Position numbers and translations under genes: made by a program. Shown here in pieces: positions 28,757-39,674 of a stretch of 64,000 nt of DNA. Origin of the DNA: Ramlibacter sp. (GTDB lineage: Bacteria; Pseudomonadota; Gammaproteobacteria; Burkholderiales; Burkholderiaceae_C); assembly GCA_019449555.1 (NCBI GenBank), contig JAGRPN010000363.1:2884-66883 (forward strand). Reading direction: 5' to 3'. Numbering within the stretch: the stretch's first letter is position 1; each line of letters begins with the position of its first letter. The notes under the pieces are model-generated. The model was not told where the DNA came from. It searched no databases and saw nothing but the letters and a program-made list of their open reading frames with translations.

Positions 28757-28787
28757 GTGAAATCGGCTAATTTGGCGTGAAATTCAC
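28757..28787. promoter_or_regulatory. AT-rich putR/putA divergent promoter with repeated GTGAAAT and palindrome GTGAAATTCAC
   Basis: GTGAAAT at 28757 and 28777, palindrome 28777-28787. Assignment to PutR is inference. Confidence 0.35.
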
Positions 28788-28836
28788 TGCGAAGCGCGCC
28801 ACCATCGCAGCATCCGCGTTTCCACCGAGCCACGCC

Positions 28837-31800
28837 ATGACCTCACAGCGCCTGCCCCTGCCGTACCGGCCCGAGGCCGACATCGTCCGCCGCCATTTGC
28901 ATGCCCTGGGTCCGGGCCTCGATTGGGCGGCGGTCGCGCGCACGGCCCGGCCCTGGGTGCAGGCCGTGCGCGAGCACCCGCCGCCGTTCTGGGCGATGGA
29001 AAGCCTGTTGAAGGAGTACCCGATCTCCAGCGCCGAAGGGCTGGCGCTGATGCGCCTTGCCGAAGCGCTATTGCGCGTGCCGGATGCGCAGACCGCCATT
29101 GCGCTGACGGCGGACCAGCTCGGGCGCGCGGATTTCGAGGGCACCGGCGACAGCGCGCTGGCGCGCCTGTCGCAGACCGCGATCGCCCTGTCGAAAAGAT
29201 TCCTGCCCGATCCTTCGACCGGCTCCGGGCAGCCGGCGCATGAGACGGGCCTGTGGGCCAAACTCGGCGCGCGCAGCGTCGTGGCGGCAACCTTGCGCGC
29301 CGTGCAATTGCTGGGCCGCCAGTTCGTGCTGGGGCAGGACATGGCCGAGGCGTTGCACGAATCGGACGTGGCCCGGCGCAAGAGCGAGAGCCTGCGCGTT
29401 CCGCCGCCGGGCCGCCCCAAGGCGGAACAGCCCCCTCGGGGGGCAGCGCAGCCCGAAGGGCAAGCGTGGGGGCTAAGGTATTCCTACGACATGCTGGGCG
29501 AAGGTGCGCGCACCGATCACGACGCGCTGCGCTACCTCGCGAGTTACGAGCACGGCATCGACGCGATCGGCGGCCGCTCCCGCGCCGACCGGCCGGTGGA
29601 AGCCAACGACGGCATCTCGATCAAGCTCAGTGCGCTGCATCCGCGCTACGAGGAAGCGCAGCGCGAACGCGTGCTGGCCGAGCTGGTGCCGCGCGTGTGG
29701 ACGCTCTGCGAGCGCGCCGCCCGGGCCCACATCGGCCTCACCATCGATGCCGAGGAAGTCGACCGGCTCGAACTGTCGCTGGAAGTGTTCGAGGCGCTGG
29801 CGGCCCGCGTGGCCGAGCAGCTTCCGCAGTGGCAGGGCTTCGGGCTGGCGCTGCAGTCGTACCAGACCCGCGCCCTGGAGCTGGTCGAGCATGTCGCCGT
29901 GCTCGCGCGCCGCTTGCGGCTGCGCCTGATGTGCCGGCTGGTCAAGGGCGCCTACTGGGACGCCGAGATCAAGCGGGCGCAGGAGCTCGGCATGCCGCAT
30001 TACCCGGTGTTCACGCACAAGCACCACACGGATATCTCGTACCTCGCTTGCGCCCGGGCCCTATTGCAGGCGCAGGACGTGATCTACCCGCAGTTCGCCA
30101 CCCACAACGCGGGCACCATCGCGGCGATCCTGCAGATGGCAGCGGGCACGTCGCCGACCTTCGAGCTGCAGCGGCTGCACGGCATGGGTGTGGGCGTGTA
30201 TCGCGAAGTCTCGCGATACGCGCCGCATGTTCCGGTGCGCCTGTACGCGCCGGTCGGGCAGCACCGCGACCTGCTCGCGTATCTCGTGCGCCGCCTGCTC
30301 GAAAACGGCGCCAACAATTCGTTCGTGCACCAGCTCGCCGACGAATCGGTCGGCATGGACCGGCTGCTGGCGTCGCCGCTGCGCCTGGAAGCCACGCCGT
30401 CGCTGCCCTCGCCCCCACGCATATTCGGCGCGCAGCGCCAGAACAGCACGGGCGTGGACCTCGCGGTGCAAGCCATGCGCGAGCCCTTATTGGCGGCGCT
30501 GGAGGCAACGCAGGTCCCCGCCGTGCCTGCCTTCGATGCCGCCCAGGCCGGCGCGGCGGTCGCGCGCTCGGCCTCGGCGTACCCGGCTTGGCGCGGGGCG
30601 CCGGTCCGCGCCCGCGCGGCCGTGCTGCGGCAGGCGGCCGATGCCATGGAAGCGCAGTTGGCGCGCCTGTGCGCGCTGCTGTTGAAGGAGGCGTTCAAGA
30701 CCTGGGGCGACTGCGTGGCCGAAGTGCGCGAGGCGGTGGACTACCTGCGCTACTACGCCAACGAAGCCGAGCGGATCATGCAGCCCATCGCGCTGCCCGG
30801 ACGCGACGGCCAGGCGATGCTCGGCATCACCGGCGAGAGCAACGAATTGCGCCTGACGCCGCGCGGGCCCTGGGTGTGCATCAGCCCCTGGAATTTCCCG
30901 CTCGCGATCTTCACCGGCCAGGTGGCCGCGGCGCTGGCCACCGGCAATACGGTGCTGGCCAAGCCGGCCGAGCAGACGCCCGCCATCGCGCTGGAAGCGG
31001 TCAAGCTGTTGCACGCCGCCGGCGTCCCGCGCGACGCGCTGCAGTTGCTGCACGGGCCGGGCGAGACCGTGGGCGCCGCGCTGGTGGCGCAGCCAGGCAT
31101 CGCCGGCGTCGTGTTCACCGGTTCCACGCAGGTGGCCAGGATCATCCAGCGCTCGCTCGCCGCCAAGGACGGTCCGATCGTGCCGCTGATCGCGGAAACC
31201 GGCGGCATCAACGCGATGGTGGTCGACTCCACCGCGCTGCCCGAGCAGGTGACCGACGCCGTGATGCAAAGTGCGTTCCGCTCCGCCGGCCAGCGCTGTT
31301 CGGCGCTGCGGCTGCTGTGCGTACACGAGAGCATTGCCGACGGCGTGATCGAGATGGTGCGCGGCGCGGCGCGCGAACTGGTGACGGGGGACCCCGCGCA
31401 ATTGCGCACCGACGTCGGCCCCGTGATCGACGCACAAGCGTACGAGGGTCTGCAAGAGCAACTGCGCCGGCTGCATGCGCAGGCCCGCGCGCTGCTGCCG
31501 CCGGGTGAGTTCCCGCCGGCCACGCGCCTGATCCCGCCGCAAGCGTTCGAGGTCGAGCGCATTGCCGACGTGCAGCAGGAGATCTTCGGTCCGGTGCTGC
31601 ACATCGTGCGCTGGGGCGGCGACCCGCTGGCCGTGATCGACCAGGTCAACGCGCTGGGCTACGGCCTGACGCTCGGCATCCAGACCCGCATCGACAGCCG
31701 CGCGCTCGCGTTGGCGGCGCGCGCGCACATCGGCAACGTCTACGTCAACCGCAACATGATCGGCGCCGTGGTGGGGGTGCAGCCGTTCGGCGGCGAAGGG

Positions 31801-31929
31801 CTGTCCGGCAGCGGCCCGAAGGCCGGCGGCCCGCATTACCTGTATCGCTTCTGCGCCGAGCAGACGCTCACCATCAACACGACGGCAGCGGGCGGCAACG
31901 TGCAGCTGCTGGCGCAGATCGCGTCCTAG
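28837..31929 (+). CDS. putA: Bifunctional proline dehydrogenase / P5C (glutamate semialdehyde) dehydrogenase, no N-terminal RHH domain
   Basis: SYDMLGE, ISIKLSALHPRY, IDAEE, RLVKGAYWD, FATHN, YLVRRLLENGAN, ISPWNFPLAIF, FTGS, ETGG, GQRCSA, EIFGP. Confidence 0.95.
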   Translation: MTSQRLPLPYRPEADIVRRHLHALGPGLDWAAVARTARPWVQAVREHPPPFWAMESLLKEYPISSAEGLALMRLAEALLRVPDAQTAIALTADQLGRADFEGTGDSALARLSQTAIALSKRFLPDPSTGSGQPAHETGLWAKLGARSVVAATLRAVQLLGRQFVLGQDMAEALHESDVARRKSESLRVPPPGRPKAEQPPRGAAQPEGQAWGLRYSYDMLGEGARTDHDALRYLASYEHGIDAIGGRSRADRPVEANDGISIKLSALHPRYEEAQRERVLAELVPRVWTLCERAARAHIGLTIDAEEVDRLELSLEVFEALAARVAEQLPQWQGFGLALQSYQTRALELVEHVAVLARRLRLRLMCRLVKGAYWDAEIKRAQELGMPHYPVFTHKHHTDISYLACARALLQAQDVIYPQFATHNAGTIAAILQMAAGTSPTFELQRLHGMGVGVYREVSRYAPHVPVRLYAPVGQHRDLLAYLVRRLLENGANNSFVHQLADESVGMDRLLASPLRLEATPSLPSPPRIFGAQRQNSTGVDLAVQAMREPLLAALEATQVPAVPAFDAAQAGAAVARSASAYPAWRGAPVRARAAVLRQAADAMEAQLARLCALLLKEAFKTWGDCVAEVREAVDYLRYYANEAERIMQPIALPGRDGQAMLGITGESNELRLTPRGPWVCISPWNFPLAIFTGQVAAALATGNTVLAKPAEQTPAIALEAVKLLHAAGVPRDALQLLHGPGETVGAALVAQPGIAGVVFTGSTQVARIIQRSLAAKDGPIVPLIAETGGINAMVVDSTALPEQVTDAVMQSAFRSAGQRCSALRLLCVHESIADGVIEMVRGAARELVTGDPAQLRTDVGPVIDAQAYEGLQEQLRRLHAQARALLPPGEFPPATRLIPPQAFEVERIADVQQEIFGPVLHIVRWGGDPLAVIDQVNALGYGLTLGIQTRIDSRALALAARAHIGNVYVNRNMIGAVVGVQPFGGEGLSGSGPKAGGPHYLYRFCAEQTLTINTTAAGGNVQLLAQIAS
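29398..29472 (+). repeat. Palindromic element apparently inserted in frame in putA (about 25 codons)
   Basis: Hairpins GCCCCC-TCG-GGGGGC (29430-29444) and GCCC-GAA-GGGC (29451-29461). Encodes a P/G/A-rich peptide just before the conserved YSYDMLGE. Confidence 0.65.
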
Positions 31930-32609
31930 CGCGCGGCCCAGCCCCCGGAGACGGGGAATGCCTGCCCGACGAAGCAGTCGGCCGCCTCGCTGCACAGGTA
32001 GGCCGCGAACTGCGCATCCTCGCGCGCCGAAACGAGCCGCCCCAGCGGCACCTCGCGCTGCAGCCGCTCCTGGAAACGCGCATTGGCTTGCACCTCGGGC
32101 GGGAAGTAGGTCGGGTTGTCGACGAAATTCTGCGCGATCGCATTGACCTGCACGTTGTGCGGCGCGGCCTCGACGCCCAGCGCCTGCACGTAGGCCAATT
32201 GCGCGCCGCGCGCTGCGCTGTAGCTGGAAGCGCGCTTCATGCCGCGCAGCGCCGAGGCGCTGCCGATCACCAGGATCTTGCCTTTGCGCCGTTCCATCAT
32301 CTGCGGCAGCACGGCCCGTACCAGCCGCGGCAGCGGATCGACCAGGTGCGCGAACACCGACCGCCATTCGTCTTCCTGGACTTCGTGCGCCGGCGTGCTG
32401 GGCGCCGGCAGCGCGAGGTGCGCGACGAGGATGTCGACCGTGCCGGCCGCCGCGACGATCCGCGCCGGCAGCGCCGGGTCCACCAGCGCACGTTCGTCCT
32501 CGATCACGGTCGCGCCCTGCCGGGCGAACTCCGCGCACAGCGCCGGACCCATGAAGTCGCGGCACTGCGTCACCAGCACGCGCTTGCCGGCCAGCGCGGA
32601 TGCATTCAT
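31926..32609 (-). CDS. hheD: Halohydrin dehalogenase (haloalcohol dehalogenase/epoxidase), HheD-like SDR-fold enzyme, 227 aa
   Basis: T-X4-F-X-G (TQCRDFMG) replaces TGxxxGxG, S-X12-Y-X3-R triad (SASALRGMKRASSYSAAR), QNFVDNPTYF loop. Confidence 0.85.
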   Translation of the reverse strand: MNASALAGKRVLVTQCRDFMGPALCAEFARQGATVIEDERALVDPALPARIVAAAGTVDILVAHLALPAPSTPAHEVQEDEWRSVFAHLVDPLPRLVRAVLPQMMERRKGKILVIGSASALRGMKRASSYSAARGAQLAYVQALGVEAAPHNVQVNAIAQNFVDNPTYFPPEVQANARFQERLQREVPLGRLVSAREDAQFAAYLCSEAADCFVGQAFPVSGGWAAR

Positions 32610-35600
32610 GCGCGCTCCCGTTTGCGCCGCAGCAGGTCGTCCACCGTCGCGCTCAGTTTGCGCAGGTCGACCGGCTTGGTCATGTGCGCGTCGAAGCCCG
32701 CAGCCAAAGCCTCGCGTTCGTCCGCTTCCTGGCCCCAGCCTGTCGCGGCGATCAGCACCATGCGCTTGCCCCATTCGGTGTCGCGGATCTGGCGCGCGAC
32801 CTCGTGTCCGTTCAGGTCGGGCATGCCGATGTCGAAGATGCCGATGTCGGGCTTCTGACGCCGCGCCTCCCGCAGCGCGTCCTTGCCGCCCTTGACGAGC
32901 GCCGTCGTGAAGCCGGCGATTTCCAGCAGCCGCGCAATGCCCCAGCCCGCGTCGATGTTGTCGTCGGCGATCAGGATCAGGCCGCGCTTGCGCGAGGAAG
33001 CCGTGGCAGCGAGCGCCATCGATGGCGGCGCGACCGGATGCGGCGTGCCGACCGCCCGCGCAGTGGCACGCGCGGCCGGCAGGATGACGCGGAATTCGCT
33101 GCCCTGGCCCAAGCCGGGCGACGAAGCTTCGACGCGCCCGCCGTGCATTTCGACGATGCTCTTGACCAGCGCCAGCCCGATGCCCAGCCCGCCGTGATGC
33201 CCGGCCACCGGCACGGCCTGGGTGAACATCTCGAACATGTGCTCGATCTGGCCGGAGTCCATGCCGACGCCCTTGTCGGCCACACTGATCGCCACCTGCC
33301 CGTCTTCGAGGCGCGCCTTCAGGGCGATCTGGCCGCTGGCCGGCGTGTACTTGATGGCATTCGTGAGCAGGTTCGAGAGCACCTGGCCGAGCCGCAGCGG
33401 GTCCGCGTCGAGCTCTACCGGAAAGGGCGGCAGGTCCACCTTCAATTCATGGCCGGCCGCTTCGAGCAGCGGGTGGGTGGCCTCCAGCGCCGACTGCACG
33501 ACCGAGGTCAGCATGACCGGCTCGCGCTGCAGCTCGAGCCGGCCCAGTTTCAGGCGCGCGACATCCAGCAGGTCGTCCAGCAGCGTCTTCATGGCGCCGG
33601 CCTGCCGCTTGACCACCTGCGCGGCCGAATCGCGGTCGCTGTCCGGCAGCCCTGCCGTCAACAACAGCGCCGCCGCGCTGTCGATGGAGGCGAGCGGGTT
33701 GCGCAACTCGTGCGACAGCACCGCGAGGAACCGGTCCTTGGCCGCATCGGCGGCCTGCAACTCGGTGCGCGCCAGCTCGTTCTGCTCGAGGGCGCGCAAC
33801 AGCTCGGCCTGGCTGCGCTCGAGCGCCTGTTGCGCTTCGCGCGCGGCGCTCTGGTCGCGCAGGATCTTGACGAAGCCCACGGCCTGGCCCTGCGCATCGC
33901 GCATCAGCATCATGGCGCCGCTGGCCCAGAAGCGGGCGCCGTCCTTGCGCTGGTGGAACCGGTCATCGGCGGCGCGCCCGTCCGCGAGCGCCGCCTGCAT
34001 CTCCTTCTCGGGCGCACCGGCCGCGCGGTCTTCCTCGGTGAATATGACGTCCGCCACCCGGCCCAGCGCCTCCTGCTCGGTGTAGCCCAACAGCCGCTGC
34101 GCGCCGCTGTTCCAGATGGTCACCCGGCGCTCCAGGTCGGTCGAGAAGATCGCGAACTCCGTCGCGTTTTCCACCACCAGGCGCAGCCGTTCCTCGCTGG
34201 TGCGCAGCGCTTCGGCCGCCTGCTTCTGCTGCGTGATGTCGCGCGCGATCGCCGTCGCGCCGATCACCTGGTTCTGTGCGTCGCGGATCGGCGAGATGCT
34301 CAGGGCGACATGGATGTCGCTGCCGTCCTTGCGCCGGCGCACCGTCTCGAAATTGCTGATCGGCGTCGCCTCGCGCAAGCGCCTCGTCATCTCGAGCTGT
34401 TCGGCGCCGCGGTCCGGCGCGAGCATCGTGACCGGTTGCCCGATGGCCTCGTCGGCGCTGTAGCCGAACATCCGCTCGGCGCCCGCGTTCCAGCTGAGGA
34501 TCGTGAGATCCATTGCGCAGCTGAGGATCGCATCGGTGGACGAAGCCACCACCGCCGACAGCCACAGGCGCACGTCCTCGGCGCGCTTCCGTTCGGTGAT
34601 GTCGATGAACGAGACCACCACCCCGCCGATGTGGTCGTCCATCGTCCGGTACGGCAACAGGCGCGAGAGGAACCATTTGCCGTCCGGCAGGCCCACTTCG
34701 CGCTCGACCGGCACCAGCCGCTGCAATACGCGCTCGGCATCCGTCCGCAATTGCGGGTAATCGAGCCGGGTGGCCAGATCGGCCAGCGGCCGGCCCAGGT
34801 CGGTGGCGATCAGGTTGAACAGCGCCACCGCGGACGGCGTGTAGCGCGTGATGCGCAGTTCGCGGTCGAGGAAGACCGTCGCGATCGCGGTGGCGTCCAT
34901 CAGGTTGTGGATGTCGCTGTTCGCATGGCTGAGCTCGTCGACCTTGGTCTTGAGCTCCTGGTTGACGGTCGAGAGTTCCTCGTTGATCGACTGCAGTTCT
35001 TCGCGGCTGGTCTCCAGCTCCTCGGTGGCCGAGCGCAATTCCTCGTTCATGGCCTGCAGCTCTTCGTTGCTGGCCTTGAGCTCCTCGGTGGACGCGTCGT
35101 GTTCCTCGACCGTGTCGCGCAGGTGTGTCTTGAGCCGCTCCAGCTCGCGCTCCAGGTGCCGCGCCACCGGGTCGGCCTTGATGCGCTCGGGCTTGGCCGA
35201 AGCCGGCTCCTGCGCGCCGCCCGCCGGCTGGTCGCTGAGCGTGACCATGAACAGCTCGGCGCCGAGATCCTTGACCGGCGACACGCGGACCGCGATGCCC
35301 CGGCTCTCGCCCCCCAATTCGACCGGGCTCACCAGCACTTCCGCAGTGGACTGGGTCTCGGCCGCCTGGTACAGCGCGGCGCGCAATTCGATCCGCAGGC
35401 TGGGGTGCACCGCGCGCAACAGGTTCTTGCTCGGCTCGCCGCCGCTGTACTGCAGGAACCGGCCGGCGCTGGCCGACAGGTGCACGATGTCATGCTCGCC
35501 ATCGACCAGGATCGAAGGCGGCGCGAGCGCCTCGAGCAGCTTGAAATGCAGCTCGCCCCACGACGTGCTGCGCCCTTCCAGCGGCAGCCCGCCGCGTCCC

Positions 35601-37237
35601 ACAACGGCGGCCTGCTGAAACGATCGCGCGGAGATGGCCGGGGCGGTGGACGCGTGCTTGTGCGCTTCCAGCGCCAGGGCCAGCGTGCCCGGACCCACCG
35701 GGATCGGCACCTCGGCGCGGTGGGTGGGACGCTGCATGAAGATGCGATGCTTCTTGTCCAGCACGGAAAACAGCGCGGTGACGTCCTCGATCGATTCGGA
35801 CGAACCCAGGAACAGCAGGCCTTGGGGCCGCAAGGCGAAATGGAAGATGTCGAACAGCCGCTGCTGCGCTTCGCGGTTCAGGTAGATCAGCAGGTTGCGG
35901 CACGAGATCAGGTCCAGCCGCGAAAAGGGCGAGTCCTTCAGCAGGTCGTGCGGCGCGAACAGCACCAGCTCGCGCACTTCGCGCCGCACCTTGTAGCCGC
36001 CGGACTCGCGCACGAAATAGCGGCGCAGCCGGTCCTCGGGCACGTCCGCTTCGATCGTCGCGGGATAGCTGCCTTCGCGCGCCGCCTTGATCGCCTGCTC
36101 GTCCAGGTCGGTTGCGAAGACCTGCAACAGCGGCGGCGCATCGAGCTCGCGCGCTTTTTCCGTCAGCAGGATCGCCAGCGAGTACGCCTCCTCGCCGGTG
36201 GCGCAGGCCGGCACCCAGACCCGGATGGCGTCGTTCGGGCCCTTGCCCTTGAACAGCTCGCCCAGGTGCGCTTCCAGGCCAGCGAACGCGTCGGCATCGC
36301 GGAAGAAATTCGTGACGCTGATCAGCAGGTCCTGCAACAGGGCCCCGGCCTCGCCCGGGCGCGTGCGCAGGCAAGCCAGGTAGGCGGGCATGTCGGCGAC
36401 GCCGTTGACCTGCATGCGGCGCGCGATGCGGCGCACGACGGTGGCGCGCTTGTAGCAGGAGAAATCGCGGCCGGTGCGGGTGCGCAGGAAATTCAGCACG
36501 TCGCGCAGCGCGGCTTCCTCCGGCGGCATGGCCGGCTGCGCCGGCGGCGCTGCCGGGGGTGTGTCCTCCTCCGGCGGCAATTTCAATTGCTTCTCGATGC
36601 GGAAATACTGCAGCAGCTGCGGCCCCATCTCGGCGACCGGCAGCACCCAGTCCACCATCCCGGTGGCGATCGCCGAGCGCGGCATGCTGGCGTGCTCGGC
36701 CTCCTCGGGATCCTGCGCGACCGTGAGGCCGCCGCGTTCCTTGATGCGCTTGATGCCGATCGCCCCGTCGCCATCGGCGCCCGACAGCACGATGGCCGCC
36801 GCATGCGGGCCGTGAGTGTCGGCCAGCGTGCGGAAGAAATGATCGACCGACACATGCCGCCCGCGCGGGCTGGCCGGTTCGTCCGCCAGAGTCAGCGAGC
36901 CGTCCAGCGCGCGGATGAGTTTGCCCGGCGGGATGACGTAGACGTTGTTCGGCGCGACGCGCATGCTCTCGTTGACCTGGTGCACGGGCATCGCAGTGCA
37001 GCGCTGCAGGATTTCCGGCAGCGTGCTGACGTGCTCCGGCGACAGATGCATGATCACGACGAACGCCTGGCCGGAGTCGGCGGGCATCGCCTTGAAGAAA
37101 GCCTGGAGCGCGGGGATGGCACCGGCGGAGCCTCCCAGGCCGACCAGGGGCGTCATCTGGTAGCCCCGCGTGGGCACCACGTTATCGATGAGATCGGCCA
37201 GCTCTTCCTCAGCGTGGTCGGGATTCAGTTCGGACAT
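32606..37237 (-). CDS. CheB-CheR-coiled coil-multi-PAS-histidine kinase-receiver hybrid protein (1543 aa)
   Basis: CheB GGSAG/MHLSP/SGADGDG, CheR PACATGEEAYS and CRNLLIY, xEEL heptads, three PAS-like blocks, H-box LSHELRNPL, receiver ADDN..DIGMPDLNG..KP. Confidence 0.92.
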   Translation of the reverse strand: MSELNPDHAEEELADLIDNVVPTRGYQMTPLVGLGGSAGAIPALQAFFKAMPADSGQAFVVIMHLSPEHVSTLPEILQRCTAMPVHQVNESMRVAPNNVYVIPPGKLIRALDGSLTLADEPASPRGRHVSVDHFFRTLADTHGPHAAAIVLSGADGDGAIGIKRIKERGGLTVAQDPEEAEHASMPRSAIATGMVDWVLPVAEMGPQLLQYFRIEKQLKLPPEEDTPPAAPPAQPAMPPEEAALRDVLNFLRTRTGRDFSCYKRATVVRRIARRMQVNGVADMPAYLACLRTRPGEAGALLQDLLISVTNFFRDADAFAGLEAHLGELFKGKGPNDAIRVWVPACATGEEAYSLAILLTEKARELDAPPLLQVFATDLDEQAIKAAREGSYPATIEADVPEDRLRRYFVRESGGYKVRREVRELVLFAPHDLLKDSPFSRLDLISCRNLLIYLNREAQQRLFDIFHFALRPQGLLFLGSSESIEDVTALFSVLDKKHRIFMQRPTHRAEVPIPVGPGTLALALEAHKHASTAPAISARSFQQAAVVGRGGLPLEGRSTSWGELHFKLLEALAPPSILVDGEHDIVHLSASAGRFLQYSGGEPSKNLLRAVHPSLRIELRAALYQAAETQSTAEVLVSPVELGGESRGIAVRVSPVKDLGAELFMVTLSDQPAGGAQEPASAKPERIKADPVARHLERELERLKTHLRDTVEEHDASTEELKASNEELQAMNEELRSATEELETSREELQSINEELSTVNQELKTKVDELSHANSDIHNLMDATAIATVFLDRELRITRYTPSAVALFNLIATDLGRPLADLATRLDYPQLRTDAERVLQRLVPVEREVGLPDGKWFLSRLLPYRTMDDHIGGVVVSFIDITERKRAEDVRLWLSAVVASSTDAILSCAMDLTILSWNAGAERMFGYSADEAIGQPVTMLAPDRGAEQLEMTRRLREATPISNFETVRRRKDGSDIHVALSISPIRDAQNQVIGATAIARDITQQKQAAEALRTSEERLRLVVENATEFAIFSTDLERRVTIWNSGAQRLLGYTEQEALGRVADVIFTEEDRAAGAPEKEMQAALADGRAADDRFHQRKDGARFWASGAMMLMRDAQGQAVGFVKILRDQSAAREAQQALERSQAELLRALEQNELARTELQAADAAKDRFLAVLSHELRNPLASIDSAAALLLTAGLPDSDRDSAAQVVKRQAGAMKTLLDDLLDVARLKLGRLELQREPVMLTSVVQSALEATHPLLEAAGHELKVDLPPFPVELDADPLRLGQVLSNLLTNAIKYTPASGQIALKARLEDGQVAISVADKGVGMDSGQIEHMFEMFTQAVPVAGHHGGLGIGLALVKSIVEMHGGRVEASSPGLGQGSEFRVILPAARATARAVGTPHPVAPPSMALAATASSRKRGLILIADDNIDAGWGIARLLEIAGFTTALVKGGKDALREARRQKPDIGIFDIGMPDLNGHEVARQIRDTEWGKRMVLIAATGWGQEADEREALAAGFDAHMTKPVDLRKLSATVDDLLRRKRERA

Positions 37238-37262
37238 CCTGCCCTCGGTGGGGGAGGACGGA

Positions 37263-38249
37263 TTATGCGCTGTTCATTTCTCCCTCGACAAGCCGGCTGA
37301 GCAGGTGCGCCTGATCGCGCACTCGGTCGGCTTGGCGCTGGCCGGCCTGCGCCTGCACCGGGTCGCCGGTGGCCTCGGCCACGGCTGCCATGCGGCGCAG
37401 CAGGATCTCGCGTTCCTGCAGCGCCCGCACGCTGCTCCACAGGGCCTGCTCGGCCTGCTCGGTCTGGGCGCTTTCCAGCGTGCCGACCGTGAACGCATGG
37501 CCCGTATGGCAGCGGTAGCGCAAGGGTTGCGCCTCGTTGAGTTCCCACAGCCCCCCGCCGCAGTCGGGACAGGACAGCCCCGACGGCTTGCCGGCCGCCG
37601 ACAGGTTTTCCATGACGTGTTTCCCTTCGAAAAGCGCCTGCTCCCGCTGGAGCTGGGCCGGATGCGGCTGCGCCGGCGCGGCAGCATCCTGGCCTACGAG
37701 CTGCACCAAGGTCGCGGCAATCTCCCCGATCGCCAGCGTGTAGTCCACCGACACGTTGCGCAACGCGCTGGCGGGCATGCTTGGTGCCACCGCCGTGACT
37801 GGGTCCTGCACGATGGCCGTGCCCCCGCACTGCTTGATCGCCGCCAGCCCGGCCGTGCCGTCGTCCAGGTCGCCGGTGAGGACGACACCGATCGCGCGAT
37901 CGCACCAGGCCAGCGCGGCCGAGCGGAACAACGGGTCGATCGCCGGGCGCGCATGGTTCTCGCGCGCTCCACGGCCGAGCAGCGCCCGGTCTTCCGTGAA
38001 CGTCATGTGATGGTCGGGCGGCGCGACATAGATCGTGCCGGGCACCAGCGCCTGCCCGTGTTGCGGATGCACGGCAGGCAAGGCGCCGCGCCGCTCCAGC
38101 AACTGCGGCAGGATGCTGTGCCGGCTGCCCACGTGCAGCACGATGCCGATCACCGCGTCCATGGCCTTCGGCAGTCCCGCCACCAATTCGAGCAGCGCCG
38201 CCACGCCCCCGGCGGAGGCGCCGATCACGATGGCATGCGGTCGATTCAC
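37263..38249 (-). CDS. Stand-alone CheB-type methylesterase without receiver domain, with Cys/His-rich C-terminal domain
   Basis: IGASAGG, VLHVG, RPAIDPLFRSAA, LTGDLDDGTAG, C-terminal CPDCGG...YRCHTGH. Confidence 0.88.
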   Translation of the reverse strand: MNRPHAIVIGASAGGVAALLELVAGLPKAMDAVIGIVLHVGSRHSILPQLLERRGALPAVHPQHGQALVPGTIYVAPPDHHMTFTEDRALLGRGARENHARPAIDPLFRSAALAWCDRAIGVVLTGDLDDGTAGLAAIKQCGGTAIVQDPVTAVAPSMPASALRNVSVDYTLAIGEIAATLVQLVGQDAAAPAQPHPAQLQREQALFEGKHVMENLSAAGKPSGLSCPDCGGGLWELNEAQPLRYRCHTGHAFTVGTLESAQTEQAEQALWSSVRALQEREILLRRMAAVAEATGDPVQAQAGQRQADRVRDQAHLLSRLVEGEMNSA

Positions 38250-38747: not shown

Positions 38748-38756
38748 CGGGCTCGC

Positions 38757-39674
38757 CTACCGCACCAACGTCGAAGCCCCAAACAGGCTCTGCACGAATT
38801 CCACCGCGAGTTCGGCAGTGCGGTTGCGCACGTCCAGCGCGGGATTGATCTCGACCACGTCGAGCGAACCGAGCTGGCCCGTGTCGGCGATCATCTCCAT
38901 GCACAGCTGCATCTCGCGATAGGTGGGACCGCCGCGCACGCCGGTGCCCACGCCGGGCGCCTCCAGCGGGTCGAGGCAATCGAGGTCGAAGCTCACGTGC
39001 AGGTGCGTGTCCTCGTCCACGCCGTGCAGCGCTTCGGTCATCGTGTTGCGCATGCCGTGCTCGTCGATGTGGCGCATGTCGAACACCTGCAGGCCCAGGA
39101 GCCGGATCGCCTGTTTTTCCTCCGCATCGACGCTGCGGATGCCGATGAAATCGATGTCCTCGGGCGTGATCGCCGCGCGCTGGCCGCTCCAGCCGACCAG
39201 CGCGTCGGGCCCGTGGCCCAGCAGGCAGGCCACGGGCATGCCGTGCAGGTTGCCCGAGGGACTGATGGCCTCGGTGTTGACGTCCGTGTGGGCATCCATC
39301 CAGATCACCCGCAGGTTCTTCTTCTCCTGGCGGCAGTAGCGCGCGACGGCGCTGATCGAGCCGATCGCCAGGCAATGATCGCCGCCCATCAGCAGCGGCA
39401 CATGGCCGTTGGCGAGCGACTGCGTGACCGCCTCGAACACCGAGCGGTTCCACGCGACCACTTCGTCCAGGTGGCGCAAGCCGCCGCTGGGCGCGGCCCA
39501 GGGATTGGCGGGGCCCGCGAGATTGCCTTCGTCGACCACGTTGAGCTTGTGCAAGCGCAGCGAGTCCACCAGTCCGGCCACGCGCAGCGCGTCGGGGCCC
39601 ATGCCGGCGCCGCGCACGCTCGCGCCCACGTCGGTCGGCGCGCCGATCAGGCTCACTGTTTTCATCCCGTTCAT
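38757..39674 (-). CDS. rocF: Arginase
   Basis: GGDHCLAIGS, WMDAHTDVN, SGNLHGMP, HVSFDLDCLDP, GTGVRGG, VEINP. Start 39674 or 39665. Confidence 0.92.
   Translation of the reverse strand: MNGMKTVSLIGAPTDVGASVRGAGMGPDALRVAGLVDSLRLHKLNVVDEGNLAGPANPWAAPSGGLRHLDEVVAWNRSVFEAVTQSLANGHVPLLMGGDHCLAIGSISAVARYCRQEKKNLRVIWMDAHTDVNTEAISPSGNLHGMPVACLLGHGPDALVGWSGQRAAITPEDIDFIGIRSVDAEEKQAIRLLGLQVFDMRHIDEHGMRNTMTEALHGVDEDTHLHVSFDLDCLDPLEAPGVGTGVRGGPTYREMQLCMEMIADTGQLGSLDVVEINPALDVRNRTAELAVEFVQSLFGASTLVR

Follow-up and report, generated by a model that had tools for sequence, protein, structure and literature searches.

A probable D-type halohydrin dehalogenase gene beside putA in a Comamonadaceae metagenome-assembled genome

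Introduction

The gene hheD, which lies between putA and a large hybrid sensor kinase gene in the window (the whole stretch of 64,000 nucleotides that was analysed), raises the question of whether it encodes an ordinary NAD(P)-dependent short-chain dehydrogenase/reductase (SDR) or a halohydrin dehalogenase (HHDH), a cofactor-free enzyme built on the same fold. HHDHs are valued as biocatalysts for epoxides and beta-substituted alcohols, and HheD8 is also valued for oxetanes. A preliminary description, made from the sequence alone, proposed an HHDH of the D subtype on the basis of two fingerprint motifs, the length of the protein and one loop, and expected automatic annotation to call the protein a generic SDR. 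The catalogue of D-type HHDHs dates from 2014 and ran from HheD to HheD38 by 2016 (PMC4989007), and two of them (HheD2 and HheD8-M3) have a crystal structure.

The analysis below indicated that the gene very probably encodes a D-type HHDH (also named haloalcohol dehalogenase or halohydrin hydrogen-halide lyase), in which the SDR fold is retained and NAD(P) binding has been lost. The preliminary call was correct, and the gene is an ordinary further member of a well-known family. As a D-type sequence 70% identical to HheD2, it is a small addition to the enzyme-screening pool.

The gene and its fingerprint motifs

The features of the locus are listed in Table 1. The proposed length of the protein agreed with the open reading frame, and homologues, including HheD2, aligned from residue 1. 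A 282-residue reading from an ATG further upstream was rejected as an over-extension into the upstream gene. A GGGAG Shine-Dalgarno sequence was found at 32615-32619, 5 nt upstream of the hheD start codon.

Table 1. Features of hheD and the adjoining genes (positions in the window)
Feature	Position	Strand	Evidence or remark
CTAG, overlapping stop codons of convergent hheD (minus) and putA (plus, 28777-31929)	31926..31929	.	Palindrome, no spacer
hheD-like gene, probable D-type halohydrin dehalogenase, 227 aa	31926..32609	minus	ORF, PDB phmmer, tree, Foldseek, dN/dS
D-type pocket loop, Q160-NFVDNPTYF-P170	32100..32132	minus	QNFVDNPTYFP, residues 160-170
HHDH motif 2, S117, Y130, R134 (S-X12-Y-X3-R), catalytic triad	32208..32261	minus	SASALRGMKRASSYSAAR, residues 117-134
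HHDH motif 1, T14-QCRD-F19-M-G21 (T-X4-F/Y-X-G)	32547..32570	minus	TQCRDFMG, residues 14-21
ATGA overlap of the hheD start codon and the kinase stop codon (TGA)	32606..32609	minus	Same 4-nt overlap in locus L004
Hybrid sensor, CheB-CheR-PAS-HisKA-HATPase-REC, 1543 aa, upstream of hheD	32606..37237	minus	Pfam
Stand-alone CheB, 328 aa, before the hybrid kinase gene	37263-38249	minus	

Both HHDH motifs were present where the preliminary description had placed them. These motifs were defined by Schallmey et al. (2014), as quoted in PMC4989007 and PMC11976700, and serve to distinguish HHDHs from SDRs; of the candidates chosen by motif in that study, all 19 that were assayed were active, according to the quotation in PMC4989007. 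Motif 1, which is predicted to line the nucleophile/halide pocket, stands in place of the glycine-rich NAD(P)-binding motif of SDRs.

A single motif carries little information by itself. Here the match did not arise by chance, because both motifs occupied homologous SDR positions, the protein was 70% identical to a characterised HHDH, and all of the best 120 homologues in a metagenome search, each at least 72% identical to the window protein, kept both motifs. Across 34 aligned D-type sequences, the motif and pocket residues were all invariant, among them T14, F19, M20 and G21 of motif 1 and the triad S117, Y130 and R134. The loop QNFVDNPTYF, which the preliminary description had taken to fit the D subtype, was identical in HheD2 and differed by one residue in HheD8; nine of the 11 positions between residues 160 and 170 (Q160, N161, F162, V163, N165, T167, Y168, F169 and P170) were invariant in the same alignment.

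Closest relatives, predicted structure and phylogeny

Sequence, predicted fold and phylogeny all placed the protein in subtype D. The best match of a phmmer search against the PDB was HheD2 (7b73; PMC9629495) with an E-value of 8e-103, 346 bits and 70% identity, followed by HheD8-M3 (8xxb; E 4.6e-90, 304 bits, 63% identity), HheB (4zd6; E 2.4e-55, 191 bits, 47% identity) and 6a41 (E 2.9e-30, 109 bits; 30% identity in Foldseek). After 6a41, other HHDHs and NAD-dependent SDRs were mixed, near 1e-20 and at 77 bits or less. Sequences HheD19-38 are 57-95% identical to HheD to HheD6, and identities between subtypes are below 30% (PMC4989007). An exhaustive phmmer search against 1.84 billion cluster representatives gave only 96 clusters with an E-value of 1e-30 or lower. 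The first canonical SDR, with TGGASGIG and S-x12-Y-x3-K, appeared in this library only at E 5e-28, and most of the full-length matches above it retained both HHDH motifs.

The AlphaFold2 model of the protein had a pLDDT of 80.7 and a pTM of 0.82. When it was used as a Foldseek query, 7b73 was again first (TM 0.88), followed by 8xxb and 4zd6 at the same identities as above, and the top ten matches were HHDHs throughout (7b73, 8xxb, 4zd6, 5b12 and 6a41). The confidence of the model was low at residues 119-126, the loop adjoining Ser117, and at the C-terminus (218-227), so the geometry of the pocket is a prediction.

In a maximum-likelihood tree (IQ-TREE) of full-length representatives, the window protein fell in a clade with HheD2 with a support of 97/83. 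HheD2 was represented by the translation from the HTCC2207 genome (L068), and the clade also contained other genome-derived D-type sequences. The preliminary description had suggested a placement against HheA-G references: the position beside HheD2 was found in this tree, and for subtypes A, B, C and G the placement relied on PDB anchors alone. By PDB searches, representatives of the other clades were anchored to the B/D and A/C sides.

Comparison with characterised halohydrin dehalogenases

HheD2 from the marine gamma proteobacterium HTCC2207 (Wessel et al., 2021, FEBS J) was the best match by sequence and by fold. The identity extended over the full length with no insertion or deletion in 225 residues, and both motifs, the triad, the RGMKRAS active-site loop and the AQNFVDNPTYFP loop were shared. 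The roughly 30% of residues that differed between the two proteins lay chiefly on the surface and within the N-terminal third. Their hosts were also different, a marine member of the Porticoccaceae for HheD2 and a Comamonadaceae metagenome-assembled genome (MAG), probably Ramlibacter, for the window protein, and the genomic neighbours were unrelated.

HheD8 from Thauera aminoaromatica S2 has its triad at the same residue numbers (S117-Y130-R134) as the window protein, and all ten triad mutants of HheD8 were inactive (PMC11782660). Seven of eight pocket residues (F19, A69, M124, Q160, N161, Y168 and R182) were identical to those of wild-type HheD8, and Q160, N161 and Y168 are among its listed active-site pocket residues (PMC11782660). 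The exception was position 127, which is Arg in HheD8 but Ala in the window protein, as in HheD2. The structure 8xxb is that of the A69F/M124P/R127G variant, HheD8-M3, with chloride in the halide site (PMC11782660). HheD8 also has an oxetane-forming and oxetane-opening side activity.

The next-closest characterised subtype was HheB (halohydrin hydrogen-halide lyase B of Corynebacterium sp. N-1074; 4zd6, 5b12). It shares the 227-residue length class, the fold and the motifs, but it belongs to another subtype and its pocket loop reads AQHWTQNKEYFW instead of AQNFVDNPTYFP. HheC of Agrobacterium radiobacter AD1 (1pwx), the mechanistic reference among HHDHs, has a Ser-Tyr-Arg triad too, and its NAD site is replaced by a halide pocket. 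However, it is only about 26% identical to the window protein, and it has 254 residues with a C-terminal extension.

The catalytic mechanism would be the same as in HheC. By analogy with HheC, HheD2 and HheD8, the substrate hydroxyl would be held by Ser117 and Tyr130. Arg134 is expected to lower the pKa of Tyr130, which could then act as the base that deprotonates the hydroxyl, and attack of the resulting alkoxide would expel the vicinal halide and close the epoxide ring. In the reverse reaction, halide, azide, cyanide, nitrite or a similar anion may serve as the nucleophile. The halide/anion pocket would lie in the former nicotinamide site, with motif 1 (T14, F19 and G21) and the N165-P-T-Y-F169 loop as its predicted lining. 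The enzyme presumably works independently of a cofactor and as a homotetramer, which in HHDHs is a dimer of dimers.

Genomic context and the upstream sensor kinase

The hheD gene is probably co-transcribed with the hybrid sensor kinase gene upstream. Before the kinase gene there are the stand-alone cheB gene and an arginase-family gene, and neither MCP, CheA nor CheW was found near the pair formed by CheB and the hybrid kinase (32606-38249). A scan of positions 31700-33100 for sigma-70 consensus promoters and intrinsic terminators found no promoter-like or terminator-like site. On the other side, hheD and putA converge without a spacer in the window, as against a 46-nt spacer in locus L004. 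Among 80 putA loci of other species, hheD was never adjacent to putA.

This arrangement raised an alternative in which the protein has HHDH chemistry but its role is tied to the CheB-CheR-PAS hybrid kinase, for example in making or removing a small molecule that the kinase senses. The overlapping start and stop codons, the good Shine-Dalgarno sequence and the lack of a promoter-like site upstream of hheD in the scanned region were consistent with it, and the arrangement was kept in L004, 86% identical, together with the pair of stand-alone CheB and hybrid kinase. However, in L003, which was 92% identical, nearly the whole kinase gene had been lost: two deletions spared only the initial ~20 bases and an internal fragment of 70 bases, whereas hheD with 60 bases upstream and the stand-alone cheB gene were kept (this contig comes from a metagenome assembly, in which a misassembly is possible). 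The 82%-identical L006 and the copies of the same genus (L008-L010) were located elsewhere; in these, as in L001 and L002, hheD stood in unrelated contexts, and the pairing was absent from every locus examined beyond L004. None of 80 species-level HheD loci shared a neighbour family with the window. In addition, Ramlibacter sp. MMS24-I3-19 had a related, shorter PAS-kinase adjoining putA without hheD. We therefore considered a kinase-tied role very improbable; the pairing of the kinase and hheD is a chance feature confined to a single lineage.

In a more specific form of this idea, the translational coupling is functional, and a methylation-adapting sensor would respond to a halogenated or epoxide signal molecule on which the dehalogenase acts. 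This was judged slightly less probable again. If true, it would give a first hint about the role that D-type HHDHs play in nature. Since the sole suggestive neighbour is dispensable in the 92%-identical relative, the locus does not advance the question of that role.

The region between the arginase-family gene and cheB was variable. It held a gene for a 509-residue RecQ-like helicase in L003 (L003:3224-4937), a 53-residue RecQ zinc-binding remnant in L004 (L004:1443-1604) and nothing in the window (38749-38761). The RecQ-like gene looks like a decaying insertion.

The search for conserved neighbours covered the open reading frames within 7 kb on either side of hheD at the 80 species-level loci and in the window, which were clustered by all-against-all BLAST. 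The most frequent neighbour family occurred at 7 of the 80 loci at most. These seven loci formed one synteny block of housekeeping genes in Porticoccaceae (GNAT, DnaT-like, AceK and RadA-like), and the block was rejected as a clue to the substrate.

With respect to pathway partners, the absence of another dehalogenation or epoxide hydrolase gene, which had been claimed for the window, held for the region within about 10 kb of hheD. No EHN-type epoxide hydrolase was found in the genome. The genome encoded two type II haloacid dehalogenases above the TIGR01428 cut-off (G000:C150:11833-12423 and G000:C3:12031-12615), both on contigs other than that of hheD. Because there was neither an EHN-type epoxide hydrolase nor a linked dehalogenation gene, the classical haloalcohol-degradation pathway was not evident. 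The lack of pathway partners is the case for most known HHDH genes: only two are located with an epoxide hydrolase, few (that of HheC being one) have a link to an epoxide hydrolase pathway, and other physiological roles are possible (PMC4989007). A literature search on the physiological role of HHDHs gave nothing relevant.

Relation to NAD(P)-dependent SDRs

According to the public annotation of its homologues, the protein would be an ordinary NAD(P)-dependent SDR. As the preliminary description had predicted, these homologues were named 'SDR family oxidoreductase', 'NAD(P)-dependent dehydrogenase' or '2-keto-3-deoxy-L-fuconate dehydrogenase', and the Pfam families adh_short_C2 and adh_short matched the protein. 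However, the Pfam matches were partial and began at about residue 47, which left the first 46 residues unmatched. The NCBIfam SDR models also matched only from residue 47 or later, and their scores of about 100 bits were all far below the curated cut-offs of 215-340. The N-terminal nucleotide-binding part is thus unlike that of SDRs. A motif scan of the 227-residue protein found no TGxxxGxG, NNAG or YxxxK, and Arg134 takes the place of the catalytic Lys of SDRs, as had been proposed. In Foldseek, NAD-dependent SDRs came after the HHDHs, with an E-value of 1e-14 and ~26% identity, compared with 70% for HheD2. Clustering with NAD-dependent SDRs, which the preliminary description had set against its own reading, was not seen; the protein clustered with HHDHs instead. 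An NAD(P)-dependent dehydrogenase is therefore a very improbable explanation, and automatic annotation has again mislabelled cofactor-free lyases as NAD(P) dehydrogenases.

Selection and distribution

Compared codon by codon with four relatives whose proteins were 75-92% identical, hheD gave dN/dS values of 0.07-0.23, which indicated purifying selection. The gene was present in a single copy in its genome (an assembly of 458 contigs, 96% complete), in which the neighbouring PutA was closest to that of Ramlibacter species (74-76%). Only 4 of the 25 sampled genomes of the genus, probably Ramlibacter, contained a homologue, and the other three copies were only 70-72% identical. A tree built from 89 D-type sequences grouped the window copy with the metagenomic L003, L004 and L006 (support 99), apart from the copies of the same genus, two of which grouped with a Ramlibacter MAG. 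In a sample of the order, a homologue was found in 22 of 300 other genomes and in 10 of 144 genera. Homologues at 70-79% identity were also found in bins of Beta-, Gamma- and Alphaproteobacteria, Acidobacteriota and Thermodesulfobacteriota. Such a pattern marks hheD as a strongly constrained, mobile accessory gene.

The patchy distribution and the separate branches of the copies within one genus might also suit a decaying or non-catalytic remnant of horizontal transfer, but the intact frame, the presence of every catalytic and pocket residue, the low dN/dS and the 70-79% conservation across several phyla make this scarcely credible.

Among the 80 genome loci (L011-L090), D-type HHDHs from Pseudomonadota, Acidobacteriota and Thermodesulfobacteriota were 70-79% identical without a conserved neighbour, and such conservation is unusually strong for an accessory gene without a known natural substrate. 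One of these loci, L070, came from a bin labelled Synechococcus sp. UW140 and encoded a D-type HHDH with 75% identity on a 307-kb contig. It grouped with the copy of Ideonella, and the contig is probably a mis-binned betaproteobacterial one rather than the carrier of a cyanobacterial gene.
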